A stretch of 32,000 nt of DNA from Candidatus Brocadia sp. (GCA_021650915.1 CP091279.1:2430001-2462000); one strand, 5' to 3'. Counted from the first letter of the stretch, positions 1,361 to 31,455 are shown. Made by a program: numbers and translations. The notes: generated by a model not told the origin, from the sequence alone.

Positions 1361-1930
1361 TTACCCCTTTGGTGATTCATTTCTCAATTTCTTCCATTCG
1401 CTGATCGCACCGCTGGCCAGTGCAATGGTGATTACAGCGATGAAGCCCCAGCGCATCACAGCTTTAACCGGGCTTTCTTTTTCATCGACCGATACGGGTC
1501 CTTTTGCCACAGCAACCGGAGCCGCAGATTCCTGTGTTGCAAGTCCTCGTATATACGCAACCAGCTCCTTGATCTTTTTATCCGTGAGCGTCTTCCCCCA
1601 TGGTGGGCAAAGATTTGACTTATCAACAGACTTCGAACCATCGGTGATAGACTTTATCAGCTGATCATCAGTCCTTTTTTTCATATAGTCGAGATCGGTA
1701 AAGTTTCTCGGTTTTGGTTTCAGATCAATGGTAAAAAACGTTCCATCCCCTTTTCCCTTTAAACCATGACATGGGGAGCAATAATAGTCAAAGGTTTTTT
1801 TCGGTGACAGTAAAAATATCTGATCTCGCGGGGAAACTTCAGCACCGTTTGCCGTTGCAAACCAACCAATTACCCCAAACACAAGAGCTGTGTTTACAGC
1901 AAATTTTTTCCAGCACATAAAATATCCCAT
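1361..1930 (-). CDS. Monoheme c-type cytochrome with signal peptide and C-terminal TM anchor
   Basis: 189-aa ORF with one CXXCH (CSPCHG), an N-terminal hydrophobic signal (AVNTALVFGVIGWFATANGA) and a C-terminal helix (WGFIAVITIALASGAI). Its ATG overlaps the TAA of the upstream gene (TAATG at 1928-1932), which suggests translational coupling. Confidence 0.8.
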   Translation of the reverse strand: MGYFMCWKKFAVNTALVFGVIGWFATANGAEVSPRDQIFLLSPKKTFDYYCSPCHGLKGKGDGTFFTIDLKPKPRNFTDLDYMKKRTDDQLIKSITDGSKSVDKSNLCPPWGKTLTDKKIKELVAYIRGLATQESAAPVAVAKGPVSVDEKESPVKAVMRWGFIAVITIALASGAISEWKKLRNESPKG

Positions 1931-3411: not shown

Positions 3412-3434
3412 CAAAAACTCCTTAACATGATATA

Positions 3435-5033
3435 TTATTCTTGTTCTTCTTCCATTTTTGGCGGAAACCTGCGTAACCTGGCTATAAACCACATCTCAAC
3501 GCTTGCACCCATAACAATAGCAACCAGAACGTATACGAAGACTGTTTTGGGTACGGGTTTTTCAAGAGAGACATAATACCAGGACGATACTGATTTTTGG
3601 CCGCCCACATCACTATTCGAGCCATCCCAGATTGCAAAAGCCACGGGAATGAGCCTGCCAACCTCAAATTGAATATCCCCCTTTACATCCTCTGTGGTCA
3701 AAGTCCTTTTGAGCACCGTCTTCCACCTTCCGTTTTGATAAACACCTTTTCCCGTGATATTCTGGCTTTCCGGAGGTTGCACGGTGATATTTTTAAAACC
3801 CTTGGCGTTCAATTCAGTCGCCACCCCAGGCTCTGATTCCGGCGCTTCAGCAATCGCACCAAATCCTTCCTGCCAGTGCGCTTTCCAACTCCATAAATTT
3901 ACGGAACCGCTTGAATCCCCCATGGCAAAATACGGCTTTTTCAGCGACTCAGGAATTTTTGCGGGAAATTGCAGAGAGATGGCATCTCTAAAAACCTCCT
4001 CTTGCCTGTTAGTAGCGTCATCCCACTCCAGCAAAAAGGCGATTTCATCGTTGTTATAGAAAGCTCTTACCATGACTGCATCAACAGAAGGAGTCCAGTG
4101 GCGCGGACTTACCAGTATCTGCCCTGCCAAGGGGATCTCTACGGCTGTTGCTTTACTCCAGTTTTCATCCAATGGCTCCGAAGGCAATTGTTCGCCTTCA
4201 AACAACTTCACTTTTACAACAACATCCGACGCCATATCCTTTGCTATGCTCTTAACATAGTGGGCAACATGCCAGCGATCTTCGTCAGATAGTTTTTCTA
4301 AATATGAACCCATGGGAGTTTCATTGAATCCCGTTGATATCGTCCGATAAATATCTTCAATGGCATTCCCGCCTTTAAAATTCCAACCCTTCGTCAAATC
4401 CCTGGCCCGGTAAGGCATATTCCATTCTGTTTGCAGGGCAACCGTGAGCGGCCCATTCCCTCTGCCATCATCCCCATGACACTCAAAGCATTTCATCTCC
4501 TTGAATAATTCACGGCCTCGCTCTATGCTTTCCGGCGTCGATGGAACACTTCCCACGGGAATCACTCTCGGTGAAGCATCTTTTGTAAACTGATCATTAA
4601 ACGTCTTTACATAATACAGCGCCTGCCATCGCTCCGTCTCGCTAATCGTACTCCAGAAAGGCATCGCCGTTCCTTCTATTCCGCTCGTAATAATTCTAAA
4701 CAGATCCTCATCCGTCGGAACTGAACCAAACGCCGTAGACCGCACTTTGTACTCGTTCCTCGTGAAGTTCCTCGGTTTCGGAAACATTGTTACCGCGGCA
4801 GGGCCATCGCCTTTTCCCTCAATACCATGACAATACCAACACCTCTTTTCGTAAACCTTTTTCCCGGCAGCAACAGATTCCGGAGTCTCAGATAATTTTT
4901 GAGGCACTTCGCGTTTATAGGTCCTGAACAAATTCGAAGACTGGGCCGTCACCTCATTGTGCATCAAAAAGGTGCTGCCACAGACACCAACGAATATCAA
5001 ACTTATCAATCCTTTATTCAAAGCTTTTCTCAT
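3435..5033 (-). CDS. Diheme cytochrome c fused to an EB_dh-type (ethylbenzene dehydrogenase gamma / NarC/NxrC-like) heme-b domain, with a C-terminal TM anchor
   Basis: 532 aa with a signal peptide and two CXXCH (CWYCHG, CFECHG). The C-terminal half carries EB_dh-like motifs (ISLQFPAKIPESLKKPYFAMGDSSGSVNLWSWKA and IPVAFAIWDGSNSDVGGQKSVSSWYYVSL; the Met and Lys are candidate heme-b ligands). A terminal helix follows (VFVYVLVAIVMGASVEMWFIA). Confidence 0.85.
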   Translation of the reverse strand: MRKALNKGLISLIFVGVCGSTFLMHNEVTAQSSNLFRTYKREVPQKLSETPESVAAGKKVYEKRCWYCHGIEGKGDGPAAVTMFPKPRNFTRNEYKVRSTAFGSVPTDEDLFRIITSGIEGTAMPFWSTISETERWQALYYVKTFNDQFTKDASPRVIPVGSVPSTPESIERGRELFKEMKCFECHGDDGRGNGPLTVALQTEWNMPYRARDLTKGWNFKGGNAIEDIYRTISTGFNETPMGSYLEKLSDEDRWHVAHYVKSIAKDMASDVVVKVKLFEGEQLPSEPLDENWSKATAVEIPLAGQILVSPRHWTPSVDAVMVRAFYNNDEIAFLLEWDDATNRQEEVFRDAISLQFPAKIPESLKKPYFAMGDSSGSVNLWSWKAHWQEGFGAIAEAPESEPGVATELNAKGFKNITVQPPESQNITGKGVYQNGRWKTVLKRTLTTEDVKGDIQFEVGRLIPVAFAIWDGSNSDVGGQKSVSSWYYVSLEKPVPKTVFVYVLVAIVMGASVEMWFIARLRRFPPKMEEEQE

Positions 5034-5102
5034 ATTCGCACTTGACTTCTTCCCTTGCTGTTTTTAAATTAAATCCAAAACACACGTAAGCCCCAATGCA
5101 AT

Positions 5103-5876
5103 TTACTCGAGCTTTTCCCGTTGCCGGGGCATAACACCTGCCGTATCGTACTCACCCATAATAATCTTCCATATTTCATCATCTTTCAAATCGTCTTTCC
5201 ATGATGGCATCGCTGAGTCCCACGGCGTGGATTCAGATGGCAGACCAGGGCCACCTTCCTTGATACGCCAAAAGAGATAATTGTCCACTACCGTGGCTAT
5301 GGTGCCAGGGTCCTGAAAATTAATCGGTCTCAGACGAAAAGAATTGGCAAACGGCCCGTTACCATCCGCCTTTGAACCATGACACGGACGACAGTAGGTC
5401 TGGAAAAGTATCTTCCCTTCTTCAACGCATTTTCTTTGCGTCTCTCCATCTGTTTGCCTGAACGGATTTTCAAGCTTTTCAAATTCCTGCGGTAACGTCG
5501 GATGCTGAATCCTCAGTTCTACCGGCGAGGCAGCGCCTGGAATCGCCCATGTATACACAAACCATCCAACGAGCACGGGAAAACCAACAAAGAGAATTTT
5601 TTGAAGGAAGGATTTTATCATGGGACCGCGATCAGGAAGTAAAAAACTTAAAAAATCCACAAATTTTTGATTGCTGGTGGTTGCATACACCAATCCTGCC
5701 AACACCCCCATGATCATATACCACATCATTAACGTGCTCGGCGTTGGCATAAGATGATCCTTCGCCATCAGTATCTGAAAAATTTTTGGTGCCGCATATT
5801 TAAGGAACAGATACAAACAGCCTACCGCTGTAATTACCCATATTAACAAAAATGCACTGCGCTTTTTAGCCATCAT
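5103..5876 (-). CDS. Membrane-bound monoheme cytochrome c (about 3-4 N-terminal TM helices plus a C-terminal cytochrome c domain)
   Basis: 257 aa with hydrophobic segments (AFLLIWVITAVGCLYLF, MMWYMIMGVLAGLVYA, ILFVGFPVLVGWFVYTWAI) followed by one CXXCH (CRPCHGSKADGNGP). Confidence 0.8.
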   Translation of the reverse strand: MMAKKRSAFLLIWVITAVGCLYLFLKYAAPKIFQILMAKDHLMPTPSTLMMWYMIMGVLAGLVYATTSNQKFVDFLSFLLPDRGPMIKSFLQKILFVGFPVLVGWFVYTWAIPGAASPVELRIQHPTLPQEFEKLENPFRQTDGETQRKCVEEGKILFQTYCRPCHGSKADGNGPFANSFRLRPINFQDPGTIATVVDNYLFWRIKEGGPGLPSESTPWDSAMPSWKDDLKDDEIWKIIMGEYDTAGVMPRQREKLE

Positions 5877-5922
5877 ACGCTCCTAACTTTTGTTTCTCTC
5901 GCATAGACAACATTCTCATTTT

Positions 5923-6873
5923 CTATTTCAAACTCTGTAAAAAAGACACTATCCCGTAAAAATCTTTCACACTTAGCAGCTCGCCGATATTTCCCGGCAT
6001 GATTGACACTTCCTGCTTCTTCATTTCGGCAATATCTGATTTCGGAATAACAACCTCTTCAATCTCACCGCTTTCCTCTTTCAGCAATACGAGCTCTTCA
6101 TCTGTTTCACTTTTAATCAATCCATTATATGGTATACCGTCAGTGGTTATCACATACATCGTCTCATAACCCTTAACGATCTTAGCGCTTGGTTTCAGAA
6201 CAGATTCTACAAAATAGTCAGCCGTCTGGATTGCCCCAATGCCGGTAAGTTCCGGCCCCACCTTCTTTCCCCGTCCATTAACCACATGGCATTTACCGCA
6301 GGTAACCGGACGCGTTTCATCAAAAAACACCTTTTCCCCTTCTTTTGCATCAACCACCATTGGTGGCACCCATGGTTTTACCTTCTTTTTTGATGCCTCA
6401 GGAATCTTATCCTTGTATTTCATCAGCGCCCCCAAGTCAGGCTCTCCACCCAAGGTTTGCAGATACGCCAAAACAGCCAGTATCTTTTCACGTGACAACA
6501 TAATCGGAGGGTCGTATACCCGGGGCATAATTTTATCATACCCCTTTACAATATATTTGTCAGGGTCAACGATAGATTCAACAAGATAGTCCAATCCTGA
6601 CGGCAACCCCAATTCCTTCGCCCGCTCTTCCGCGCGGCTCGCCAAACCTTCCTGATCAGGACCCCTGGTAGCACTGCCACTGGTTCCAATCTTATGACAG
6701 GTGCTGCATTGCCCATCTCCCCAAAATATCTTCTCACCAGCCTCAGGACTCACTCCACCGGCGGACTCACCACCACCCGTACCGGAAAGCCCCGCCACAT
6801 ACATAGTGATATAGATATAAAATCCGATAACCGCAATTCCAAAAGCTGTAATTTTTAGCATGCTCTTATTCAT
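5923..6873 (-). CDS. Membrane-anchored diheme cytochrome c (planctomycete-type heme-binding domain)
   Basis: 316 aa with an N-terminal anchor helix (ITAFGIAVIGFYIYITMYVAGL) and two CXXCH (CSTCHKIG, CGKCHVVNGRGKKVGPELTGIG). The second module has the GPxLxxIG...ESVLKPSAKIVKGYE signature I associate with the Pirellula/Verrucomicrobium-type heme-binding domain. Confidence 0.8.
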   Translation of the reverse strand: MNKSMLKITAFGIAVIGFYIYITMYVAGLSGTGGGESAGGVSPEAGEKIFWGDGQCSTCHKIGTSGSATRGPDQEGLASRAEERAKELGLPSGLDYLVESIVDPDKYIVKGYDKIMPRVYDPPIMLSREKILAVLAYLQTLGGEPDLGALMKYKDKIPEASKKKVKPWVPPMVVDAKEGEKVFFDETRPVTCGKCHVVNGRGKKVGPELTGIGAIQTADYFVESVLKPSAKIVKGYETMYVITTDGIPYNGLIKSETDEELVLLKEESGEIEEVVIPKSDIAEMKKQEVSIMPGNIGELLSVKDFYGIVSFLQSLK

Positions 6874-7048
6874 AAGTTTTCCCAGGCCTTCATTCTACAC
6901 AGTGAAATTTAATCACACCTAACATACCAATTACCTCCATCACTATTTCAAATCCCGAAACCGCTCAACGCGATTTTCACGCCCCGTCTGCTCTCTTCGC
7001 ATTTTACTTACGTATGCTATTTCATATTCGTTTTAGTAAATCAATGCG

Positions 7049-9214
7049 TTATTCATAATGCTCCGGGTGTGGCTCCGTTAATTCAAACTCTTCCTTCAAT
7101 ACCCCTTTCTCTTTCTTATCACCTAAATTAGCCAGCCAGAATACGAATGCGACCAGCCCAAGAAAGAGCATAACAATCAATCCCACAACTCGACCCATGT
7201 ACGACAGTGCAGGTGTATACGCCCATTGAGAGGTATCCTGCAATACCCCATAGATATGCCAATCCATCCGGAGACCGGAGCGTATGAACCCCATTAATCC
7301 CATTAAAATAACAATAACCACGCACAGGAGGAGCAACGCATACTGAGATCTTACGGGCATCTTTCCCCAAACAATACCACCAACCAGCTTTGATTTCCGG
7401 AACATGAAAATATCGATGATAGCGTTCATAATAAGACAGCTCATGACGATCGACACCTGTGTTACCGACAAATATCGCAAGACCAGGTTGGCCTTTTGCA
7501 TCACCTGGAAACCGTAATACCAGAAATAGAGCACGGCAATACACGCCGTCACCGCAAACAACAACGCCTGCCCCAGCTTGCCTTTATTCTTGAAGGTCAG
7601 AAACGCCGCAAGACATACGGCAAACGACTGGATATAGAGCGACCGGACCAGCGGCTTCACAAAGACCTTGATATTTTCTTCCAACTCCACAAAATTGAGC
7701 GAAATCGCGTAGGAAACCAACATGAGGAGGCAAAAGATCAGGGCAGAAAAGATACCGATCTTCCCGACCTTGCCTTGTTCGGAGAACGGACATATCTCAC
7801 CCTTATTGCTCCGCCGGTAAATCAGAAAGGAAAAGAAGGTTGCCAAAATAATCAGGTTTACCACGGCATTCTTTGCCGCCATAACGCCGAAGTATTTGGA
7901 GAATGGATGATATTGCTCACCAATCATTGCCCGCTCTTCTCCGCTTAAAGGCAGATTATGCGGGGTGAGCCATACCGCAAAACACATAAAAATAATAAAA
8001 ATAAGATATTTAAAAAATTTCGTGTATCGCTCTGATCCCTTAATTCTTCCCATGCCAAGCCACAAATAATAGTTCGCCCCGATGAAGAGCATACCAATAA
8101 GAATGGCCTGAATAATAAAAGTCCACGAGAAAGCGCCACCCATCATAATATTTCCCATGACAGGGCTTGAGCTATAGACTTCCCGACCCAGCCAATATCC
8201 TGCGAAAGGCAAGGGGATCAATGCCCCGACACCAATGAAATTTCCAACATAACCCATCCAGTCATAATGCGCCTTTTCTTCATCTGTTTTTGCACCCAGG
8301 AATTTCACCGCAGCGTAGGCGCCAACCACAAACCCGCCAAAACAGACATTAGCAATGAGTCGATGGATATTCACAGGCATCCAGAGCGGATTATAGATCG
8401 CATGGTACAAACTCACGACCTTTCCTGTTGCCGGTACAATGCCAGACGGACTCATCATATACGTCGCCCAGGAATTTGTCAAAAACATCAATCCTGTTCC
8501 AAAGAGGTTGAGCATTACTCCCAGAAAGATGTGAAACCACTTTTTCGCTGCGGTTCCTTTTAATATTTCCCACGAATAGTAATACCCATACAACGTAAAC
8601 GCCTCGCCAAAGAACATCAGGGCATAAATATACATGGTTGACGAAAAAACGTTCGTCATGTGCCCCATGAACTCCGGATACAACCCATACAAACAGAAAC
8701 CAAGCAGACCACCAAGCGAAGCGGTTGTGGCGAAGGCGGCAGATAAAAGCTTGGTAAACTCCTTGGCCATCTTATCATATTTTATATCTCCGCCCTTGAA
8801 ACCTACGATCTCCACGATTACCGCAAAGATAGGAACACCCAGCACAAACGCGGCGAACATGAGATGCAACTCAGACACGATCCAAACGACCGTTCGGGAA
8901 TCCAATCCAAAAAATGTCCGGTACTGAACGGGAGGCAATTCTTCTTCCTCTGCTGCCGCAGCCGTCGCAGTTCCTTCTGCCGTCACCGGCTGACCTTCAG
9001 CCAATTGAGGCGCTCCGGATGATTGCCCTGCTTCGAACTGAGGGAGTTCTACGCCGGTTGCCGCCCCTTCGCCAGTCTTTGTCTGCTCACCAGACACGTC
9101 AGCGGCAAACAGACGTGGAGGAACCGAGAGAAAGGAACCAAGAGAAAGGAATAACAACAAAACAAAAAAAGCACTTCTTTTATTGAACTGCTGCACTATC
9201 TTCAAATTATTCAT
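7049..9214 (-). CDS. Cytochrome bd-like (CydA-like) polytopic membrane protein, ~15 TM helices, no adjacent CydB
   Basis: The N-terminal half aligns by eye to E. coli CydA. [44 protein letters not shown] matches [56 protein letters not shown] matches [32 protein letters not shown] matches KFVHTVASGYVTG, so both heme-ligand His positions are conserved. The C-terminal ~300 aa add about 8 more helices. The track start at 9220 is TTG; I prefer the ATG at 9214 ([10 protein letters not shown]...). Confidence 0.8.
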   Translation of the reverse strand: [721 protein letters not shown]

Positions 9215-9271
9215 TCGCAATGCGCCTTTTCAATCGAGTAAATTACACATTTCAGTAAAAATAGAATCACG

Positions 9272-17547: not shown

Positions 17548-17570
17548 TCCAAAAACATACCTTTAAAGAG

Positions 17571-17657
17571 GGTGGATTAGGGCGCTGGTTTTTGCGCCGA
17601 ATTCACCAGCAACATCTTATAAACGAAAATGGTGGATGCGCTTTCGCTTAATCCACC
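17571..17657. repeat. Two GGTGGAT...ATCCACC hairpin repeats (REP-like family)
   Basis: GGTGGATTAGGGCGCTGGTTTTTGCGCCGAATTCACC (17571-17607) and GGTGGATGCGCTTTCGCTTAATCCACC (17631-17657). The same family recurs at 20780-20904. The design resembles enterobacterial REPs (GTAGG-CCGGATAAGGCG...CGCCGCATCCGG). Confidence 0.6.
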
Positions 17658-17700
17658 TTGATACTAAACTTAACATTTCTGCCGATGACACTCGGCGCAC

Positions 17701-17763: not shown

Positions 17764-17918
17764 AAATCCTTGAGCCGTTATTTAATTTTTAAGATGCGCC
17801 TCTCAGCCTCCTTCTATTCCCATAAAAATTTCTCTTGGTTTTCTGCCTTTTTCTATGCTATATTTTTGAAAAGGCATTTTCTCCGCATCTTTTTTACACA
17901 AGAAAGAAGATATCGCTT

Positions 17919-18158
17919 ATGGACAACCGTATAGAAGCGAATCCGGATATATGTCATGGTCAACCCTGTATAAAAGGGACACGGATTATGGTATATATCA
18001 TCATCGAACTTCTCGAATCTGGTTTAACACCCGATGACATTGTAAAGGATTATTATCCACAGATAACAAAAGACGACATAAAGCAATGTTTGCATTATGC
18101 CGCTTCACTTATTAAGGATCAGGAATATATTCCGTTTGAAGAGGCAACACAACATTGA
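17919..18158 (+). CDS. DUF433-family antitoxin-like protein
   Basis: 79 aa from the ATG at 17919 (MDNRIEANPDICHGQPCIKGTRIMVYIIIELLESGLTPDDIVKDYYPQITKDDIKQCLHYA). The PxICxGxPxIxGTRI and DIxxALxYA patterns are typical of DUF433. The track's earlier start (17835) adds a hydrophobic junk leader. Confidence 0.8.
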   Translation: MDNRIEANPDICHGQPCIKGTRIMVYIIIELLESGLTPDDIVKDYYPQITKDDIKQCLHYAASLIKDQEYIPFEEATQH

Positions 18159-18505
18159 GATTCCTTGCGGATGAGAATATATTTCCCTCTCTTGTATCGC
18201 ATCTTCTCAAATCCGGGCACGACATTAAAGCTATTCAGGAATTTTGCCTTCACGGGGCAACAGATGATACGATTGTTGATTTGGCAATAAAGGAAGAAAG
18301 AACTATCATAACCTTTGATAAACATTTTGGTGATATTCTCAGGTATCCTCCACAAAATTTATTTGGTACCATCCTTATACGGATTCACCCTCCTCTGTTA
18401 GAAGACATCCTTTTCGCAATAGATAACCTCTTTCAGGCCTACCATGCCAATACCTTCAAGGGAAGGCTTGTCGTGTTATCTAAACAGGGCTATAGAATAC
18501 GGTAG
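18155..18505 (+). CDS. DUF5615-family PIN-like putative toxin
   Basis: 116 aa (MRFLADENIFPSLVSHLLKSGHDIKAI...ATDDTIVDLAIKEERTIITFDKHFG). The TTG start overlaps the antitoxin TGA by 4 nt. DUF433 followed by DUF5615 is a recurrent type II TA-like pair. Confidence 0.75.
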   Translation: MRFLADENIFPSLVSHLLKSGHDIKAIQEFCLHGATDDTIVDLAIKEERTIITFDKHFGDILRYPPQNLFGTILIRIHPPLLEDILFAIDNLFQAYHANTFKGRLVVLSKQGYRIR

Positions 18506-18749: not shown

Positions 18750-19343
18750 TTATTGATTTCTGCTCTGATTTGTTGCTCCGGATGCCTTTTCTATCTCTTT
18801 CAGCGCCGTTTGAAACTCGCTCGCCCACATCTGCGTCTCATTCTTTACCATTTCCCGTATTTTCAAGATAAATTCTTTGCATAACAAAAGGGCTTCTTTT
18901 GCCTGTTCCGGAGTGGAAACACTACCTGAATATGCAAGCCTGTTCTTCTCCCAGTCGAAACAAAAGGTTTCCAGTAACCGATCCAGTTCCATCTGGGTAA
19001 TCATGTACCTCACCCAACCACTGGTCAACCCTGCAAACCGGTCCAGTGCAATAAGAATAGCGGCAACTGCTATCGCTATGGTAGCCCACAGAGGATTGAG
19101 TCTTTCTGTAAGAAAGATCTGGCTCAACACGGGAATAACACCTGATACGCCGGTTACAATGATGGCGCTCATACGCAAACTATATCCCCATACCCTTTTA
19201 CTCCGGCGCTTCTCGTCGTACCACGTTATCGCCTTCCTGGTTTCCCGTACAACGTACTCATATAGCTTTTTCAACGAAACGTCCCATTCGTTTGAATTCC
19301 AGGACAACACAGGAAATGAATTTTCATCTTTGTTGTTTGACAT
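18750..19343 (-). CDS. SLATT/DUF4231-like two-TM protein (putative membrane effector)
   Basis: 197 aa from the ATG at 19343 (RBS AAGGAAG plus a 10-nt spacer). AITWYDEKRRSKRVWGYSLRMSAIIVTGVSGVIPVL then PLWATIAIAVAAILIALDRFAGLTSGWVRYMITQMELDRLLETF matches the DUF4231/SLATT layout I remember: WY-x-K...K/R, TM1, short loop, TM2, then a W-x-x-Y/R helix. The track start at 19385 is a TTG inside the ISL3 inverted repeat and is spurious. Confidence 0.65.
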   Translation of the reverse strand: MSNNKDENSFPVLSWNSNEWDVSLKKLYEYVVRETRKAITWYDEKRRSKRVWGYSLRMSAIIVTGVSGVIPVLSQIFLTERLNPLWATIAIAVAAILIALDRFAGLTSGWVRYMITQMELDRLLETFCFDWEKNRLAYSGSVSTPEQAKEALLLCKEFILKIREMVKNETQMWASEFQTALKEIEKASGATNQSRNQ

Positions 19344-19370
19344 GGAAAGCATTCTTCCTTTCTCTAAAAA

Positions 19371-20705
19371 GGGTTCTTCTCCCAATTAGTCAATAAGAAT
19401 TGAGAAGAAAATCCTTTAAATCATTGAAAAGAGTGGACATTTGGTGTTTCCTATAGATAGATATATACCGTTATAGAAACTATTTACAGGAGACCAGCAA
19501 TGTCCCCATTAAGTATATTACCATATTTTCCTTTTCAGCGGGTAAGAATTACGAAGCAAACTGTTTTTCCTGATGCTGAGATATCTCAGCTTACTGCCGT
19601 GCCCGATGAACGATTTCGCCCAATATGTCATGCGTGTGGCAGCAAAGCACAGCGCATTTACCGCCATGACAAACGATCTTTGCGGGATCTGAATCCTGGT
19701 TCAGTTCGCGTATGGATACATTGTTCGTATCGTAAGATAGCCTGTGAGCCATGCAATCGAATCGTAGTTGAAGACTTGGGTTTTTTTCAACCCTACAGTC
19801 GTGTTACGCATCGTTTAGCAGCGTATATTCACGAATTGTGTAAAGTGTTAGCCGTAACCGAAGTTGCAAAACATTTTGGAATTAACTGGAAAACCGTAAA
19901 AACCATCGATACGTTTTTTCTGGAACGACAATACGCGCAGACAGATTATCAGAATCTTCGCATACTGGCGGTAGACGAAATCTCTGTTAAGAAGGGACAG
20001 CGCTATTTGACCGTTGTTCTGGACTATCTGAGTGGCCGCGTAGTCTGGGTGGGAAAGGAAAGAACAAAAGAAACCCTGGGAACCTTCTTTGCGGGTATGA
20101 CAGAGGAACAAAGGCAGGCGCTTGAGGCCATTGCCATGGATATGTGGGATCCTTATATTCATGCAGTAAAAAAGCACGTGCCTCATGTTAAGATAGTCTT
20201 TGACCTGTTTCATGTGGTTTCAAGTTTTGGTAAAGTTATTGACAAGGTGAGAAATGCTGAATATCAAAAAGCATCGAAGAAGGATAAGGACATCATCAAG
20301 GGTTCAAAATATCTTTTGTTAAAAAACAAACGAAATATTCGCAGGAAAAAACACCGAGAACATCTCAAACAGCTCTTGTCGCTCAATGAAACCATAAATA
20401 CCGTTCTGATTCTTAAAGATAAACTCAAACATATTTGGACCTATACCTCACGGACGTGGGCGAGAAAAGCCATTGATGTAGCGAAAACACTAAACTATTC
20501 TGTCGTGAATAAGTTTGCAAATATGCTTACAAAATACCGCTACGGAATCTTGAATCACTGCGATTATAAAATTCATACCAGTAAACTCGAAGGGGTTAAT
20601 AATAAGATCAAAGTTATCAAAAGAAAAGCTTATGGATTTCATGACGAACGGTACTTTTCATTAAAAATTATACAAGCTTTTGCAAACTAATTGGGAGAAG
20701 AACCC
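19371..20705 (+). mobile_element. ISL3-family insertion sequence, 1335 bp, apparently intact
   Basis: Perfect 20-bp terminal inverted repeats: GGGTTCTTCTCCCAATTAGT (19371-19390) and ACTAATTGGGAGAAGAACCC (20686-20705). They enclose one uninterrupted transposase ORF. The flanking 8-mers (TCTAAAAA and TAAGAAGA) do not form a clean target-site duplication. Confidence 0.9.
19500..20690 (+). CDS. ISL3-family transposase
   Basis: 396 aa with an N-terminal zinc finger (CHACGSKAQRIYRHDKRSLRDL...CSYRKIACEPCNRIV), an HTH region and a DDE core (LAVDEISVKKGQRYLTVVLD, AIAMDMWDPY, SKLEGVNNKIKVIKRKAYGF). Confidence 0.95.
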   Translation: MSPLSILPYFPFQRVRITKQTVFPDAEISQLTAVPDERFRPICHACGSKAQRIYRHDKRSLRDLNPGSVRVWIHCSYRKIACEPCNRIVVEDLGFFQPYSRVTHRLAAYIHELCKVLAVTEVAKHFGINWKTVKTIDTFFLERQYAQTDYQNLRILAVDEISVKKGQRYLTVVLDYLSGRVVWVGKERTKETLGTFFAGMTEEQRQALEAIAMDMWDPYIHAVKKHVPHVKIVFDLFHVVSSFGKVIDKVRNAEYQKASKKDKDIIKGSKYLLLKNKRNIRRKKHREHLKQLLSLNETINTVLILKDKLKHIWTYTSRTWARKAIDVAKTLNYSVVNKFANMLTKYRYGILNHCDYKIHTSKLEGVNNKIKVIKRKAYGFHDERYFSLKIIQAFAN

Positions 20706-20779
20706 TAAGAAGATGTAACCGGCACAGTTAAATCACCATGACAACGCCCATCCTCACCCTCTGCACACGATAATTCTCT

Positions 20780-20904
20780 GTAGGGTGGATTAAGGCGATT
20801 GTCTTGTATCGCCGTATCCACCTTACCCTCAGTTGCGCATTTGTAATTTTATTTTGGTGGATTCGCTTCGCCCTTCGCAAACTCAGGACAGGCTTAATCC
20901 ACCC
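20780..20904. repeat. Two GGTGGAT...ATCCACC REP-like hairpins
   Basis: GTAGGGTGGATTAAGGCGATTGTCTTGTATCGCCGTATCCACCTTAC (20780-20826) and GGTGGATTCGCTTCGCCCTTCGCAAACTCAGGACAGGCTTAATCCACCC (20856-20904). They lie between the STAND gene stop and the ISL3 right end. Confidence 0.6.
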
Positions 20905-20924
20905 GCCTTTACAGGGTAAAAGAA

Positions 20925-22991
20925 TCAAAGTTTAAGAGTCCTGGCGCAACGAAATCCAACATCGCTGCGTCTGCCGAACGGTACGCCATGGTTACGACTT
21001 GTGCACTGATAGTCATAATCTCCACTGCCCCAGGAGCCGCCGCGCAAAACACGCATTTCAGCCTTATCATACCAACTATCTGTCCATTCCCATACATTTC
21101 CTACCACGTCCGAGATACCTTCTGGTGTGTCTCCTTTTTTGAAAATACCCACTGGTGAGGTTTTTTGCAGACCAATTTCCCAATTATTGCATCTCAGCTT
21201 GTCCCAGCCATTATCCCACGGATACACCCGCCTCTCAATACCAGATGCCACTACCTGCCATTCCTGCTCTGTAGGAAGACGATAGATGTACCTGTCGTCT
21301 TTGGTTAGCCAGTTGCAAAAGGCATACGCTTCGTACCATGAAATACCCACAACGGGAGAATTCGGACACTTCCATTTACGCTCATGCCAGTATCGAGGAA
21401 ATTTTTCTTGTTGTTGCTCAAGCCATTTCTGCCCGTGTGGGCTCCAATATTCGGGCTTTTCATATCCTTTAGCATCAACAAACTCCTTATACCACTGGTT
21501 GGTAACCGGATATTTGCATATTTCAAAGGGGGAAATATCAACCTTACCCAAGCCTTCTAAATCATATTCTCCCCCTTCAATTAGTACAAATTTTTTTAAA
21601 TCCCTAGGATCACCTAGCAAACCCAGAATTTCTCCAGCCTCAGTAAGTATTTTAGAGTCTTGTTCAAGTTTTTGCTCAAATATTGAACATAAGCATTCCT
21701 GCGCCAGCTTAACGACCTTTGAGTCTCTCATGTCTGGATGAATGTCCAATAAACAATTACAAGCCAATCGCCAATTTCGGAAAGGACTTGAATCATGGGA
21801 GCGTAACTTGTCTTCCACAATGCCAACAGCAATTGCGTTTGCAGTGTTGCTTAAATGACCAATGAACAATTCTATCATTTCTTTAAACCAGTCATTATCC
21901 CAATATTTTTCATTAATTACCTTAGCATGGTCACGTTCAAACATCGCTATTTTCCTTGCCATCAGGAATTCCTGAAAAGTCAGATGCCAGAAGCGATATT
22001 GCCCGCCCTCCAGTCTTAACAAGCCACAGTTTTGTTCTATTTTATCGAATTCATTTATCAGTCTAAGCTCGTGCTGCGTTTTTGTTTCGTCCTTTTCCCT
22101 TCCAAAAATAGTTTCCATGACTCTCAGGGCTAAGGCTTTATCAAATCCTATTTTACTTGCGTCGAAGTCCTTCCCCAGCTTTCCCTGTTTTGCAGTGTGC
22201 ACTTCATACGCCAACTCCATTAAAAACCTCAAAACTTCATTTGGATTGGAAAAACGCTTGTGGATGAGATTGCTTATGACTTTTTCGTAGAGGTCAGCCC
22301 GTTGTTCTGGCAATTTTTTGTCGTAATGATAGAGAACGCACGCTGCCGTAAGCATCAATGGGGTTGTAATTAATTCTTCCACATTCTGATGTTCCTTAAT
22401 TTCACTACACATCATGGAAGATGTTTTCCCTTTGGCTTGCAGTTCGCGGTCGAATTTGCACCATTTGTCGATGAAAAGTTCTACCTGGTTTAAGTTAAGA
22501 GGATTGATTTCCACCCGTTTTTCGCCGAACTGGTTATTGACTGCTGCGTCTATACCGTGGAGTCTGCCCGATAGCACCATTTTATTACAATGATAATCAG
22601 TTCTGAGGGTAGCCAACGATTCAACCACAATTTTCCTAAATTCTGGCTCAATTTCATCCAGCCCGTCAATTAAAAAAATTGCTCGTTTTTCTTTACAGTA
22701 TGCCTTGACAAGTTCGATGGTCAGCCCGTGTTTTGCCGCCTGAAAATAACCAGACAAGAGTTCTTCTGCCGTGCCGGTACCAGAAATAAGGTTTGCCGGT
22801 TTCTTTATCTGCGGCAGATCACGTAAAAACACCAATATCGGTAAAAAGCCATTTAAACCTGCTTTGTTTTTGTCATTTACTATAGAGCTGGCGCATAAGC
22901 GAAAAGATTCGTTGTAAATCAGGGAGAAGAGGCGATAGGACGGGGTAATAATTTTGTAAAGTCTACAAAAAGATATCAAGAACGGCAGCAT
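20925..22991 (-). pseudogene. C-terminal fragment of an IS-split STAND NTPase: NACHT (post-Walker A) - helical/HEAT-like - FGE/SUMF1-type domain
   Basis: FLPILVFLRDL, Walker B AIFLIDGLDEI, HEAT-like AGEILGLLGDPRD, and a complete FGE-sulfatase-type domain (ICKYPVTNQWYKEFV, VVGISWYEAYAFCNWL, YRLPTEQEWQ, GNVWEWT, RVLRGGSW, VGFRCAR). Residues 1-37 of the called ORF (22886-22991) are read-through of the IS left end. Gene-derived sequence runs 20925-22885. Confidence 0.85.
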
Positions 22992-24934
22992 GAAAAGGCT
23001 TGTTTTTCAGGGGAGATGAAAAAATATTTGAAGAAAAGAGGGGAAAAATTACAAAATAGTCGTGCCCATCTTGTATAATAAATCAGGCAAACTATTCGAA
23101 ATACCATACAAGGGAGGGCACAGTGAAATGATACCATTATTGAGGAACACAAGCCAGCAAAAACCATTATTCCATATCATTCATGAAGACGACAGATATT
23201 TGCTGAATACCGATGATGCGGAGTGGTTTCAGGTATTGTACCATTTTCGATACGAAAGATATGTGGGGTTTGGAGTAGACTATTATAATGCGCTGCATGA
23301 ATTTAACCAGAAGCAGGCCAGGGAGCGAGAAGAGCGAGGAGTTGAGGGGGAGAAAGATGCGAGGGAGACCAAGGAGGAAGCGCGGCAGAGATTGCTCTTT
23401 TCACGGGTAACCATGCAGGCAGAGGGTGAGAGAGGAGAAGGGGTTTTATTCGAGGTAAAAAGAGAAGATTTGTCGCTATCGGGGGTATCTCCGGAGAGTA
23501 TAGCGCCTGGCAAGGTGCCATTTCGATTTGGGGGGGAAAAAGCCGAAGTGTTTTTTTGCTTTGCTGAAGAGTTTTATCGGTGCAACGATAATGGGGTTTC
23601 CCGCCGAGCCGGAAAAGGTGTACCGGTTATTGAAGAGCAATCCCAGTTTTGCGCGGGTATGTGGATTTATTCCCAGACACGTCAGGGACGAGTATTGCAG
23701 TGAGCACATACCAAGCCTTCGGAAGCTGGAGCAGTTTGACCAGATCATGAAAGAAAGCGGGATATGGGCGAGGATAAAAGTGGAAGAGGTGAAAGCGAAC
23801 ATAACGAGTGGGATCATAAGAAAGGAAAATGAGTTGGTGGGAGACACGACCCATTATTACGCGTATTCGGGCTTTGAGACCGTAGTATATAAAGATGCGA
23901 GTGGCAAAGAGCAGAAGAAATCGCAGTCAAAGGTAACCAAGAGGTGTGGTTGCGAAGATAAGCAGGGGTGCAGTCATTCGTGGGGATTGAGTGATGATGG
24001 GGCGGGGACAATCGTAAAATCCGGGGGAAAGATGTATTGGGGTCACAAGGCAAGTGTGCTTGGGTATCCCCGTCAAGGGATACCCTTAGATGCGCGTGCG
24101 ATAAAGGATGCGGCGACCTTTGATGGAATGACCTTATACCCGCACGTGAAGGAAGTCTTTGAGATGTATCCGGAGATTCAACCGTCGGTAGAAAGGGTAT
24201 TGTATGATAGCGCAGGCGATAGTGATGAAATCAAGAAGAAATTCAGGGAGGATCTGGGTATAGAGGTAAAGGTGTCTTTCAATCCAAGAAGGAAAAAGGA
24301 GATCACGGAAGATTTGCCACGAGGAATAGACAAGATTACACCGTATGGTATTCCGGTGTGTAAGGCGGGATACGAGATGGAATATCAGGGGGATGAGATA
24401 CGAACATGAGAAGTTTATCTATCAAGCGCCAAAGGATTCAGACAATGCGCCGGTATGTCGCGCTTGTTATCATCGCGAGGATTGTTGCCCAAACGCTACC
24501 GGTGGCAGGATAATCAATATCTCGTTTGATCTCTTGCCACACATAGACCCCAAAGACCCTCCGATGGCGAAGAGGTACAAGGCCATCATGTCCCGTCGTC
24601 CTGCGGTGGAAAGGATGATAAAACGGTTGAAGTGTGACTTTGGGGATGATCGGCTCACGAAGCGGGGAAACGATTCGTTCCAGGCATACCTGGATAAAAC
24701 CATGATTGCGTTTCATGTCTTGTTAAGAAACTAAATCTGGTTTTCAGCGTAAAAGAGTCGTCGTGTGGAGGGATGGTACGTCTGGAATTCGGCTTATTTG
24801 GTCTGGTGTCCTCTGACGAATCGTTTTTCTCTCTCTCTTTGACCTCGCTTTTGAGTGAAATCCGTTTCTCTGTCAATGCACACATGATGCAGTTCCGCCT
24901 TTTCATGGCTTGTTTTTTAGTTTATGCGCAGGCT
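22886..24934 (+). mobile_element. IS4-superfamily insertion sequence (IS1634-like by size and TSD), 2049 bp, transposase frameshifted
   Basis: Flanked by a 6-bp direct repeat CTATAG (22880-22885 and 24935-24940). Imperfect terminal inverted repeats are AGCTGGCGCATAA (22886-22898) and TTATGCGCAGGCT (24922-24934), matching 11/13 and about 17/22 when extended. Excision plus one repeat copy equals 2055 bp and restores the host ORF in frame. Confidence 0.75.
23128..24734 (+). pseudogene. DDE transposase (DDE_Tnp_1/IS4-like) broken into three frames
   Basis: Frame 1 runs from the ATG at 23128 (RBS AAGGGAGGG). Frame 2 (23528-24409) carries LVGDTTHYYA, WGHKASV and LYDSAGDSDE. Frame 3 (24345-24734) carries RPAVERMIKRLKCDFG...RLTKRG...YLDKTMIAFHVL. 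Both junctions sit in G-runs (G7 at 23530-23536, G5 at 24388-24392). Deleting one G at each fuses the frames (...FRFGGKKPKCFFALLKSF..., ...EYQGMRYEHEKF...) into a protein of about 535 aa. Confidence 0.75.
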
Positions 24935-25865
24935 CTATAGTATAAGCCAGATACTTGAGTAAGGTTGTTTTACCAGAGCCTGCCTGCCCGCTTATTAACA
25001 AGTACTCATGCTCAGCTATAAGAGTTTCGATATCAACGGCAGATTGCCCTTTTTCTATCTCTTTTTGTTCTTGTTTTGTTTTTTTGCCTATCTGCTCGGT
25101 ATAGAAGGGAATAAACATTTCCGCCTTTGTTTTTTTATCCGGCGGTGCTGCATAGAGGGGAATAAATGTCTCCGGCAAGGTTAAACTAATCAGTCCCTTG
25201 TCCTTCGTGTCAACCAGTTTATCAATATCCATTTTTTCGCAACGCATGGATATCCAGTTTTTGTAGGTCGGAGGGATGATTAATGGTAGTTCCGTTTCAG
25301 GGATCAGTTTCGAAATTTTGCCATTGATTTTTTCCCACCCCTTTGCGCTTTCCGCAGTCCATTTTTCCAGATGATCCTTGATTTTCACGCAAAAGTCATC
25401 GGTTGTGGAAAATTCCTCAAACAACAGCAATTTTTCTTCTTCAATCTTGTCCTTTAAATCCAGCACCTTTGTCAGTTGGGGGTCTTCCTGTTCCTTCCTG
25501 GAGCGAATCTGTACCTCTTTGAAATAAGTCATAATATGAGGCTTCTTCAATGACTTCCAGGAATCATAGGCAAGGAGAAATTCTTCCAGGGTGCCCGATG
25601 CTTCTTTTCCCGTAGGAGAACCAAACCGTTTGTGAAATATGCACACAAAGATATCACACTCTTCTACAAGCCGGTTTATAAGCTCCTGTGGGCGGCCGGG
25701 AGACGGGAATGCATCTTCCCATCCTATGGCCTGAAATGAGATCCCGTAGGGTTTAAGGAGCGCGCTTTTATTTAAATCTTCACAGATTTCACGCACAACC
25801 GTTCGTTCTGCCGTCACGTCTCCGGGAGACGCGATAAAAACGCTGATTTCTTTTTTGTCTTTCAT
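24903..25865 (-). pseudogene. N-terminal fragment of the IS-split STAND NTPase: DUF4062-like domain, linker, NACHT Walker A
   Basis: ISVFIASPGDVTAERTVVREICEDL...ECDIFVCIFHKRFGSPTG fits the DUF4062 pattern (VFISS..D...ER...CD.yv.i...RyGs). The pre-NACHT region reads YKNWISMRCEKMDIDKL...LTLPETFIPLY, and Walker A is ISGQAGSGKTTLLKYLAYTI. The last 10 codons (EPAHKLKNKP-stop, 24903-24934) are IS sequence. The start is set at the ATG at 25865 because the track's TTG (25940) and the next ATG (25931) fall inside the predicted promoter. Confidence 0.8.
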
Positions 25866-25911
25866 TGTAATGGAGATTGATTGCGGCGTAGCCGCACCAA
25901 TGTTAAGGTGT

Positions 25912-25940
25912 AATGTACATCTTTTTTGCATACCTGTCAA
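25912..25940 (-). promoter_or_regulatory. Sigma70-type promoter for the STAND NTPase gene
   Basis: The minus strand reads TTGACA (25940-25935), a 17-nt spacer GGTATGCAAAAAAGATG, then TACATT (25917-25912). This is about 45 nt upstream of the ATG at 25865. Confidence 0.4.
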
Positions 25941-29808: not shown

Positions 29809-29862
29809 CTTTCCATGCTGTTTACTCTTCAACATAGTTTAATCATTAAAAGGAGGTCTTTG

Positions 29863-31455
29863 GTGAAGTTTGTATATCCCCTTATGCTATTGGTTGCATT
29901 ACCGACAATGCACCTTAATTTGCTTAACGCAGAGCCAACCAAAAAAGAGGCAAAAAATCTTTCTCATACCGATGAACCTTTGCCCAAAACAAAGGCAAAT
30001 GTTATAAAAAATAAGCTTTGCCCGGAATGTAGCAGGATATATCCTGGCGATGTAAACTTTTGCAGTATCGACGGCAAGGGGCTAGTAGATTTTACGGAAG
30101 AGGAACTTATCTGTCCAACCTGCAAACAAAAAGCAAACCCCGGAGAAAAATTCTGCAAAAAGGATGGGACACCACTGATCTCCAAATCTTTGCCTGATAA
30201 AACGACCTCTGTGCCTGACAAAAAGATAGAAATCAACCTTCCGCCAAATGCAACTCAGGAAGACAAGACGAAGGCCGCCATGTATCATTTCATGGAAGGA
30301 AACCGACTGCGCGAAGAAATGAATGATTTTGAAGGGGCTTTGGAGGAATACAGAAAAGCAGAGAAAATAAATCCGGAACTACCATCTCTCCATTTTCAGA
30401 TGGGAGGAATTTATTGGAAACTTGGAAAACAGAAGGAGGCATTAGCCCATCTCGACAAATGTAAGACAATATTGGAGGCACAACCGCCCGAAACGAAGTC
30501 AAGTGAAAGTTATCAAAAGACATTGCAGGATGTCAAAGTTTACATAAACAAATTAGAAAAAGGGTTAAAACCATCCGAAAAGAATCAACGCAAGGAGTTA
30601 ACGCAGGCTGAACGGGACGAAAGGATGAAAAAAGCCCTGTCTGAAAATCGGGGGAAATGGGGTGAAATGATAGTAATCCCTGCAGGAAAATTTACCATGG
30701 GCACAAAAGAAGATGAATTTATTCCTGAAGAAACACCACAGCATGAAGTGTATTTAGACACATACTATATCGATAAATACGAGGTCACCAACGCCCTGTA
30801 CTGGGAATTTTTGCAATATATCAAAAGCACCGGCGACCACAGCAAATGTTTCCCGGGTGAACCAAAAAACAAGGACCATACCCCTGGGACACCCCACACA
30901 GGATGGGATTATCCCTATTATGACTATCCTGATTACCCGGTAACCAGGGTGGATTGGTATGATGCCTATGCCTACGCAGCCTGGGCAGGCAAACGTTTGC
31001 CCACGGAAGCTGAATGGGAGAAGGCCGCCAGGGGAACTGATGGGCGCAGATTTCCCTGGGGCAATGTCTGGGACGCTAAACGAAGCAATGTCGGCCCTGA
31101 TGCGCCTTTGTCTGTTGGCAGTTTTGAATATGGGGCAAGCGTCTATGGATGCCTCGATTTAATCGGCAGCGTCTCAGAATGGTGCTACGACTGGTATCAT
31201 CCGGAATATTACCATACGAGCCCAAGCATGAATCCGAAAGGACCGGAAGCTAGCACTGGCATGCGAGTAATCAAAGGAGCGTCTTTGTTTGCACCCTATG
31301 CATATAAAATGCGCTGTGCGGTAAGAATATTTGGAAATGCTGAGGATCGAAACAAAAGCATTGGCTTCCGATGCGCGAAAGATTATACACCAGAAACCGA
31401 GAAAACGATTAAGGAAACCAGTAAACCGGAAGACAAGGGCAAGGCCGTACATTAA
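29863..31455 (+). CDS. Exported double-zinc-ribbon - TPR - FGE/SUMF1-type domain protein
   Basis: I prefer the GTG at 29863 (AAGGAGG plus a 6-nt spacer; MKFVYPLMLLVALPTMHLNLLNA signal) over the track ATG at 29815. It has two zinc ribbons (CPECSRIYPGDVNFCSIDG, CPTCKQKANPGEKFCKKDG) and a TPR-like segment (AMYHFMEGNRLREEMNDFEGALEEYRKAEKINPELPSLHFQMGGIY). The FGE-type domain carries IDKYEVTNALYWEF, PVTRVDWYDAYAYAAWAGKRLPTEAEWEKAARG, RFPWGN, SEWCYDWY, RVIKGAS and IGFRCAKD. Confidence 0.8.
   Translation: MKFVYPLMLLVALPTMHLNLLNAEPTKKEAKNLSHTDEPLPKTKANVIKNKLCPECSRIYPGDVNFCSIDGKGLVDFTEEELICPTCKQKANPGEKFCKKDGTPLISKSLPDKTTSVPDKKIEINLPPNATQEDKTKAAMYHFMEGNRLREEMNDFEGALEEYRKAEKINPELPSLHFQMGGIYWKLGKQKEALAHLDKCKTILEAQPPETKSSESYQKTLQDVKVYINKLEKGLKPSEKNQRKELTQAERDERMKKALSENRGKWGEMIVIPAGKFTMGTKEDEFIPEETPQHEVYLDTYYIDKYEVTNALYWEFLQYIKSTGDHSKCFPGEPKNKDHTPGTPHTGWDYPYYDYPDYPVTRVDWYDAYAYAAWAGKRLPTEAEWEKAARGTDGRRFPWGNVWDAKRSNVGPDAPLSVGSFEYGASVYGCLDLIGSVSEWCYDWYHPEYYHTSPSMNPKGPEASTGMRVIKGASLFAPYAYKMRCAVRIFGNAEDRNKSIGFRCAKDYTPETEKTIKETSKPEDKGKAVH

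Follow-up and report, generated by a model that had tools for sequence, protein, structure and literature searches.

Does the small membrane protein encoded next to a large NLR-like NTPase work with it, or are the two genes neighbours by chance? The question is raised by a locus of Candidatus Brocadia sp. (GCA_021650915.1, CP091279.1:2430001-2462000; these 32,000 nucleotides are called the window below), the minus strand of which carries a 961-codon STAND NTPase gene with DUF4062, NACHT and FGE-sulfatase domains, split by an insertion sequence (IS), followed by a gene for a 197-residue protein of the SLATT_2 family (SMODS and SLOG-associating 2TM effectors, family 2). Once the ISs are removed conceptually, the two genes lie ~240 bp apart. 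We found that SLATT_2 genes adjoin STAND or TIR genes in several unrelated lineages, and we regard it as plausible, with a probability of about one half, that the SLATT protein is a nucleotide-gated membrane co-effector of the NTPase. This reading is favoured because a TIR protein of type VII Thoeris activates the SLATT effector ThsH by way of cyclic ADP-ribose (cADPR), and because Kaur et al. (2020) reported calcineurin, TIR and PNP heads to be accompanied by SLATT genes.

A prerequisite is that the two genes belong together in genomes without the ISs. Joining positions 25865..24935 to 22879..20925 gives 961 codons and a stop with no internal stop codon, and the product differs at 15 of its 961 residues from P0001, an intact 961-residue protein encoded on another Brocadia contig. 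Apart from the IS, the NTPase gene is intact. Two IS-free loci, L001 (JGI, 39.7 kb) and L087, have the same gene order as the window (DUF423, the 961-residue NTPase, SLATT_2, DUF5615/DUF433, MogA, MOSC, GlnA), with SLATT_2 on the strand of the intact NTPase gene and 167 bp after it. The NTPase and SLATT proteins of Brocadia sp. UTAMX2 bear consecutive accessions (OQZ00584 and OQZ00583). The N-terminal NTPase fragment and the SLATT protein of the window have identical or clustering counterparts in KKO21076, KKO20907 and KKO18772. The neighbourhood of the two genes is thus genuine, and both the length of the reconstructed NTPase and its pairing with the SLATT gene, as proposed in an earlier sequence-only reading of the locus, hold.

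The reconstructed NTPase displays the tripartite order of an N-terminal effector, a central NTPase and a C-terminal sensor. Its N-terminal part matches Pfam DUF4062 (PF13271, residues 9-98; E 1.9e-11, 44.4 bits against a cut-off of 24.7) and its C-terminal part FGE-sulfatase (residues ~755-958; E 1.5e-42), with NACHT at residues ~285-450; the precomputed matches of P0001 comprise DUF4062, NACHT (PF05729) and FGE-sulfatase. Pfam or NCBIfam matches thus bear out the domain calls made earlier, SLATT included, with the exception of HEAT repeats, which were not detected by Pfam in the window NTPase at E<=0.01; among homologues, only certain distant ones have a PF13646 record. The Walker A (GQAGSGKT, residues 293-300) and Walker B motifs (FLIDGLDE, residues 379-386, in IFLIDGLDE) are invariant in 20 homologues. 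In the DUF4062 head, 20 homologues of 29-52% identity (16-20 for W49, E50 and E95) all have G48, W49 and E95, the latter in the GTLEEF stretch that corresponds to a GTxEE motif, and nearly all have E50. By position and motif only, E95 was tentatively equated with the published catalytic glutamates (E97, E98, E103 or E108), and W49 and E50 with the published W-E motif. The predicted model of residues 1-185 (predicted local distance difference test, pLDDT, 82.6) is a three-layer alpha/beta domain, and its best matches in the PDB are the CMP N-glycosidases MilB and BcmB. The sequence of the DUF4062 domain gives no match to PDB chains at E<=1, and the head has no Pfam TIR match.

The window NTPase is a new member of two known kinds of proteins, the NLR-like proteins with a NIR head and the STAND-CLec sensors. 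According to three preprints of 2026, DUF4062, renamed 'NIR', is a TIR-like NAD+-hydrolysing effector that needs its catalytic glutamate; it is present in Avs2, Swarozyc, Vulcan, Vesta, Evangelion and TEP1, and the C-terminal sensors of the NLR-like proteins that carry it are varied (10.64898/2026.05.01.722283, 10.64898/2026.09.04.749371, 10.64898/2026.06.25.731849). Domains of the FGE-sulfatase type count among the accepted sensors of defence STANDs (PMC13581612), and STAND-CLec proteins have been described as 'antigen sensors' diversified by diversity-generating retroelements (DGRs; PMC10907252, PMC7159879). With the TIR and SLATT pair of type VII Thoeris, all the ingredients of the locus are on record, and to call the module undescribed, as had been done, was too strong. 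Like PsAvs2-DUF4062 and other NIR/DUF4062 NLR-like proteins, the window NTPase combines an N-terminal DUF4062 domain that has the conserved glutamate with a STAND NTPase and a C-terminal sensor. It differs from them in that its sensor is of the FGE-sulfatase/C-type-lectin type rather than TPR, HEAT or WD40, and in that a SLATT gene follows. The full-length protein does not match the Avs2 models, with which it gives only weak local hits.

The NTPase gene of the locus codes for a sensor-effector protein of the bacterial NLR-like (STAND/NACHT) type, with a presumed role in defence. Its mode of action is inferred from what is established for Avs, bNACHT and NIR proteins. The C-terminal FGE-sulfatase domain, of C-type-lectin fold, would bind a ligand, probably a viral one. 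Ligand binding would cause the NACHT module to oligomerise, and oligomerisation would in turn activate the putative NADase of the N-terminal NIR domain, such that NAD+ would be consumed and the infection aborted. The SLATT protein would represent a second effector, acting at the membrane and presumably opened by an NAD+-derived product of the head, ADP-ribose or a related nucleotide.

The SLATT protein itself matches the SLATT_2 models above their cut-offs (Pfam PF18183, E 2.7e-26, 93 bits against 25; NCBIfam NF033633, E 1.8e-39, 135 bits against 40), in agreement with its first assignment. Hydropathy places hydrophobic helices at residues ~57-78 and 85-104, and the AlphaFold2 model (pLDDT 83.3) comprises four helices, two of them hydrophobic, at residues 17-77, 85-104, 108-136 and 145-196. 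The conserved residues W15, W41 and Y42 are located in the N-terminal helix, which we consider cytoplasmic. When the model was compared with the PDB using Foldseek, nothing was found below E 0.07, and the hits were only generic long-helix bundles. The protein is 100% identical to P0088 of other Brocadia assemblies, and the ORF is therefore unchanged in the window. An open reading frame (ORF) of 211 residues (18750-19385), with a TTG start within the inverted repeat of the neighbouring ISL3 element, was rejected as spurious; translation starts at the ATG at 19343 or possibly at position 19352 (200 residues, as called in other assemblies).

How often the two types of genes adjoin depends on the side from which they are counted. 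Enrichment of SLATT genes next to homologues of the NTPase had been set beforehand as the test of the proposed link, and the outcome is divided. Starting from the NTPase, 83 loci of NACHT-FGE homologues outside Brocadia (L003-L082, L099, L100 and L102) were surveyed, and a SLATT_2 gene is present in a single one, L005. Starting from SLATT_2, 19 independent loci of the clade were surveyed, and 10-11 of them have a STAND or TIR neighbour by raw count. The positive cases are spread across all three SLATT subclades, and none of the STAND genes in the fetched flanks is further than ~2.5 kb from the SLATT gene.

The partners are diverse. In the window and L001, a DUF4062-NACHT-FGE gene lies 167-240 bp from SLATT_2 on the same strand. 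At L083, the SLATT_2 gene is a paralogue 82% identical to that of the window, and a decayed DUF4062-NACHT-FGE gene, likewise paralogous, lies 374 bp downstream with the same orientation. This pseudogene of P0031 type (within L083:8001-10711) is heavily deleted, since only residues 1-80, 391-434 and 574-993 remain, and gene callers split it into ORFs of 105, 154 and 286 residues. The gene order thus differs between the two paralogous Brocadia pairs. Metallophos heads are found in a Metallophos-NACHT-FGE protein encoded inside a DGR locus and convergent with SLATT_2 at 26 bp (L005), in a Metallophos-STAND protein of 972 residues, convergent at 109 bp (L105), and in a Metallophos-TPR protein 2.2 kb from SLATT_2 (L103), which is the ambiguous case. 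At L112, a DUF4062-STAND-TPR gene is divergent from SLATT_2 at 1.5 kb, and a Metallophos-iREase-NACHT gene lies 1.8 kb downstream. TIR proteins are encoded at L086, where the gene overlaps SLATT_2 by 4 bp, and at L091, where a TIR-NB-ARC-TPR gene, the TIR of which matches ThsB (E 2e-60), is divergent from SLATT_2 across an IS, within 1.5 kb. The other partners are an nSTAND1-TPR protein with ~58 residues before its NTPase, encoded upstream of SLATT_2 within 1.5 kb (L098), a WD40-repeat protein whose gene ends 13 bp upstream of SLATT_2 (L096), and a BTAD-AAA_16-TPR protein encoded 1.3 kb away (L110).

Two of the surveyed regions deserve a description of their own. L112:1-10627 and L113 form a dense defence-type island, with genes for an OLD-like TOPRIM/ABC ATPase, the DUF4062-STAND-TPR protein and SLATT_2, IS fragments, and then the Metallophos-iREase-NACHT gene followed by a gene for an unannotated protein of 807 residues. 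At L107 (3772-4968), a 398-residue protein with a Walker A motif (GVQGGGKS) and without Pfam match is encoded on the same strand as SLATT_2, its gene ending 33 bp upstream; it may be another kind of NTPase partner of SLATT_2.

These data must be weighed against the possibility that the NTPase needs no partner and makes up a single-gene NLR-like system, with depletion of NAD+ by DUF4062 as the whole effector step, and that SLATT_2 is an unrelated neighbour brought there by the clustering of genes in defence islets. A number of observations weigh against a coupling of the two proteins, and several of them speak for this alternative. Published DUF4062 enzymes yield ADP-ribose and nicotinamide, and depletion of NAD+ alone defends the cell with no need for a second effector. 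Avs2, Vulcan, Evangelion and Swarozyc, which are single-gene DUF4062 systems, defend alone. PADLOC, with which the locus was to be checked, recognises the N-terminal 170 residues of the NTPase as PDC-S60 (PDLC05050, E 2.4e-28) and has no match for the SLATT protein. PDC-S60 is a single-gene candidate without SLATT, and it aligns with the window protein over the head and a portion of the NTPase only, leaving out the C-terminal sensor; the Metallophos-headed relative at L005 matches PDLC05051 (E 1.2e-34).

The surveys add to the points on that side. SLATT is missing from 82 of the 83 homologue loci, and DUF4062-NACHT-FGE homologues outside Brocadia in particular mostly have no SLATT neighbour (L099-L102, L016 and the first copy at L005). 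Many SLATT_2 genes stand alone: some 8 of the 19 loci have no STAND neighbour, and tblastn searches there for remnants of STAND, TIR or Metallophos genes were negative. The orientation of the pairs is variable, as the genes are found on the same strand, convergent or divergent, and a strong hairpin, of REP type in the window, separates the NTPase and SLATT genes in both Brocadia strains. Because of this variable orientation and of the hairpins, co-transcription of the two genes is doubtful. Among the best 150 of 2204 family representatives, none has SLATT_2 fused to a STAND, TIR or nucleotide-sensor domain. Apart from unannotated extensions, the longer members have only two extra domains, an EamA transporter region in one case and an FDX-ACB fragment in the other, and each is probably a chimera of gene calling. 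Lastly, the clustering of STAND genes in defence islands could give rise to adjacency without a functional link, and L112 is indeed a dense island, with its OLD-like ATPase and two STANDs. This remains a live alternative because the neighbourhood counts are uncontrolled.

Chance clustering accounts less readily for other features of the pairs. Two paralogous pairs with different gene orders exist in Brocadia. In five unrelated lineages, SLATT_2 is found at most 170 bp from STAND or TIR genes, and the distance is no more than 2.5 kb in 10-11 of the 19 loci. In addition, the heads of the partners nearly always act on nucleotides (DUF4062, TIR, calcineurin-like). We therefore infer that the SLATT_2 clade is truly associated with STAND proteins bearing heads that act on NAD+ or nucleotides. 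The single-gene explanation is a serious one, and we lean against it without dismissing it.

The partners also bear on the way in which a coupling might operate. In a different scheme, no nucleotide signal would be needed: the oligomerised STAND protein would directly recruit or open the SLATT protein in the membrane, as effector-associated adaptor domains couple STANDs to effectors encoded separately. The partners without recognisable enzymatic head (nSTAND1-TPR at L098, WD40 at L096, BTAD-AAA_16-TPR at L110) would be in line with this, as would the architecture of the SLATT protein, with its conserved N-terminal helix and its C-terminal helices and no known nucleotide-sensor domain. Nevertheless, no adaptor domain shared by the NTPase and SLATT was detected, and most partners have heads acting on NAD+ or nucleotides. 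Furthermore, the characterised SLATT effector, ThsH, responds to a small molecule, the cADPR made by the TIR protein ThsB, and the SLATT effectors of CBASS are thought to respond to cyclic dinucleotides (10.64898/2025.12.03.692087). Direct contact therefore appears improbable.

As for nucleotide gating of the SLATT protein, type VII Thoeris offers the closest parallel. In both cases, a TIR-type NAD+-processing domain adjoins a stand-alone SLATT protein with two transmembrane segments, and L086 and L091 have true TIR proteins. ThsH shares an operon with its TIR protein; its possible counterpart in the window, a SLATT-family protein, is encoded next to the NTPase on the same strand. The differences are that the head in the window is DUF4062 rather than a Pfam TIR, that it is embedded in a 961-residue STAND protein, that a hairpin element lies between the genes, and that the known products of DUF4062 are ADP-ribose and nicotinamide, not cADPR. 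The head has no significant similarity to three type VII ThsB TIR sequences (Table S1 of that preprint). The second parallel is with the GAP1-N1 GTPase-centric systems, in which SLATT genes accompany calcineurin, TIR and PNP effector domains (Kaur et al. 2020), the published statement nearest to the pairing reported here. The same calcineurin-like and TIR types of heads are found beside SLATT_2, whereas the core NTPase of the window is a NACHT/STAND protein and not a GAP1 GTPase, and the other components of GAP1 systems are absent.

It is tempting to extend the co-effector reading to the whole clade. The SLATT_2 proteins might be dedicated second-stage membrane effectors of NLR-like STANDs whose heads act on NAD+ or nucleotides (DUF4062/NIR, TIR or calcineurin-like), in a two-gene, 'STAND-gated Thoeris-like' system in which the receptor, hypermutated by a DGR in some lineages, controls a nucleotide signal that opens a pore. 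This generalisation is a tentative one, and we consider it rather unlikely in this full form. The recurrent adjacency of SLATT_2 and STAND genes is not described in the searchable literature, the papers that name both SLATT and NACHT doing so without this pairing. The pairing across unrelated bacteria is thus a new lead, if a modest one, as both gene types were already known. If coupling is real, NLR-like sensors, NIR/DUF4062 NADases and SLATT pore effectors with ADP-ribose-type signals would be joined in a single pathway, and some DUF4062 domains would serve to signal and not merely to deplete NAD+, on which a NIR preprint of 2026 only speculated. Together with a sensor of the DGR type, this would make a system that has a mutable receptor as well as a second messenger and an executioner at the membrane. 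Otherwise, the locus merely holds one more ordinary representative of a known NLR-like family, inactivated by an IS and lying beside an orphan SLATT gene.

The view of the FGE-sulfatase domain as a sensor-type module, put forward from the sequence, is supported by the finding of DGR variable regions (VRs) in homologues. The usual conserved neighbour of NACHT-FGE homologues is in fact a DGR: a reverse transcriptase (RT) gene is present in the fetched flanks of 19 of the 83 loci, and Avd alone in 6 more. L005:2124-11178 and L003:204-7298 are complete DGR cassettes, comprising bAvd, RT and a template repeat (TR), each with two flanking targets, a NACHT-FGE and a KAP-NTPase-FGE protein at L003, a DUF4062-NACHT-FGE and a Metallophos-NACHT-FGE protein at L005. 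In the TR/VR pairs of these two loci, 9/10, 13/14 and 21/21 mismatches fall on template adenines. The DUF4062-headed target at L005 has a 1-bp insertion in its VR that cuts the ORF short. The window NTPase resembles the STAND-CLec sensors of DGRs (Dore et al. 2024, RT clade 5D; the FGS-domain systems of Kaur et al. 2020) in its NACHT and C-terminal FGE/CLec domains and in having, at L003 and L005, homologues that are true targets with bAvd, RT, TR and paired targets including KAP-NTPase-FGE.

The window differs from those loci in that neither RT, Avd, nor a template repeat or second copy of the VR was found within its 32 kb. The NTPase gene ends with a VR-like segment (~20941-21050), the closing motif of which, GGATTTCGTTGCGCCAG, occurs once in the window. 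The flanks of this segment (RGGSW...GFRCARTL) are conserved in the window NTPase, and at the nucleotide level they are common to the window, L004 and L083. The stretch between the flanks is hypervariable when paralogues are compared, and the segment is the same in all Brocadia orthologues. Because of this identity, there is no sign of current diversification, and because the window also has no RT, Avd or template repeat, its NTPase is either an orphan or a remote target of a DGR. In the Brocadiaceae locus L004 (3183-9476), the genes for a Metallophos-NACHT-FGE and a KAP-NTPase-FGE protein share 82% identical 3' ends of 149 nt, with scattered differences; these ends look like paired variable regions, and no RT or template repeat was found in the fetched 14 kb. 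The window also encodes a second FGE-sulfatase protein (29815-31455, plus strand; 546 residues). This protein has a hydrophobic segment at the N-terminus, a pair of CxxC...C motifs, TPR repeats and, at the C-terminal end, an FGE domain (E 3.3e-57), and its C-terminus extends beyond the GFRCA motif. Its gene has no nucleotide similarity to the VR of the NTPase.

The link with DGRs raises a further alternative, namely that the module is not antiviral and acts as a sensor of self and non-self, or of programmed cell death, within anammox aggregates, as proposed for DGR-diversified STANDs of multicellular bacteria. Homologues come mostly from lineages that form aggregates or filaments (Brocadiaceae, Desulfobacteraceae, Chloroflexota, Acidobacteriota), Kaur et al. 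and Dore et al. tie such systems to multicellularity, and no SLATT_2 homologue was found on viral contigs. Among plasmids, tblastn with the SLATT protein gave only relatives of 20-24% identity in uninformative contexts. However, Kaur et al. and Dore et al. still propose the sensing of invaders as the trigger of cell death, and all DUF4062 systems tested so far are antiphage. We thus regard a role unrelated to viruses as very improbable.

In the genome at hand, the fate of the pair has been determined by the ISs, as summarised with the other features in the table. One of them inactivates the NTPase gene, and the other, of the ISL3 family, cuts the SLATT gene off from its upstream DNA, both as initially read. 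For these two reasons, the module is non-functional in Candidatus Brocadia fulgida. Damage falls on the NTPase both in the window and at L083, and the SLATT ORF is intact in both Brocadia pairs. Loss of the NTPase with retention of SLATT fits the rapid turnover typical of costly sensors, and it does not fit the purging of SLATT as a toxic part; negative selection against a toxic module, suggested at first, is not borne out by this pattern.

Features of the window around the NTPase and SLATT_2 genes (positions counted from the first nucleotide of the window)
Feature	Position	Strand	Basis or remark
Palindromic element, second copy	17570-17658		terminal repeats GGGTGGATTAAG / CTTAATCCACC
DUF433 + DUF5615 (PIN-like) toxin-antitoxin-like pair	17835..18505	+	Pfam E 1.2e-23, 2.2e-26; convergent with SLATT gene; same in L001
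SLATT_2 two-transmembrane protein, 197 aa	18750..19343	-	Pfam and NCBIfam SLATT_2
ISL3-family IS, 1333 bp, perfect 21-nt inverted repeats	19372..20704	+	NF033550; transposase 19500-20690
REP/MITE-like (repetitive extragenic palindrome/miniature inverted-repeat transposable element) palindromic element, 122 bp	20784..20905	.	terminal repeats GGGTGGATTAAG; between NTPase stop and SLATT gene
NTPase 3' part, codons 311-961: rest of NACHT, helical region, FGE-sulfatase/C-type-lectin-fold sensor	20925..22885	-	Pfam FGE-sulfatase
ORF carrying FGE-sulfatase	20925-22991	-	
IS in NTPase gene, 2049 bp, imperfect terminal inverted repeats AGCTGGCGCATAAGCG / AGCCTGCGCATAAACT	22886..24934	+	junction against intact P0001 and L001
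NTPase 5' part, codons 1-310: DUF4062/NIR head, linker, Walker A	24935..25865	-	Pfam DUF4062
ORF carrying DUF4062 and Walker A	24903-25940	-	
Promoter-like site TTGACA-17-TACATT, 10/12 matches	25912..25940	-	~45 nt upstream of NTPase start codon; consensus match only

The IS in the NTPase gene is flanked by a 6-bp target duplication, CTATAG (22880-22885 and 24935-24940), and P0001 reads ...KYLAYTI|VNDKNK... across the site of the break. Placing its ends at the direct repeat GGCTTGTTTTT (22998 and 24907) was rejected, as this leaves the NTPase frameshifted and is contradicted by the alignment with P0001 and L001. Its transposase is spread over three overlapping frames (23062-23703, 213 residues; 23528-24409, 293 residues; 24345-24734, 129 residues). 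Only the last piece is recognisable, by weak matches to DDE_Tnp_1_6 and to IS1182/ISNCY transposases, two thirds of the transposase matching no Pfam or NCBIfam model, and blastn of the IS against plasmids gave no match. As the transposase is split over three frames, the IS is probably a decayed copy, or else it belongs to a poorly described family with the 6-bp palindromic target CTATAG.

The ISL3 element has a full-length transposase (293 bits against the equivalog cut-off of 180 for NF033550). Its target duplication, at first thought to be missing, is present: the 8-bp repeats CTAAAAAG (19364-19371) and CTAAGAAG (20705-20712) are identical at 7 of 8 positions, and the IS-free locus L001 has a single copy. 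The insertion point is located 20 nt upstream of the SLATT start codon, such that the ribosome-binding region is kept and the DNA further upstream is moved by 1.3 kb.

Of the spacer between the two genes, 122 bp consist of the palindromic element. The palindromic DNA described there as REP-like hairpins does exist, in the form of a single element with a second copy elsewhere in the window. Both copies are intergenic, just past a stop codon. L001 has an unrelated, perfect palindrome of 57 bp at the site of the 122-bp element, which suggests that the spacer is a hotspot for hairpin elements. The hairpin DNA at this site folds with z-scores of -4.2 and -11.9. Similarly, the promoter-like site proposed upstream of the NTPase gene exists, and such sites are no commoner in the region than in shuffled sequences (12 found against 14.3 expected). 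The neighbouring pair likened to a type II toxin-antitoxin system was confirmed as DUF433 and DUF5615. Further away on the minus strand (1361-9220), the window contains multihaem cytochrome c genes and genes for an EB_dh-type haem protein and a cytochrome bd-like subunit, which are typical of anammox respiratory clusters and unrelated to the pair.

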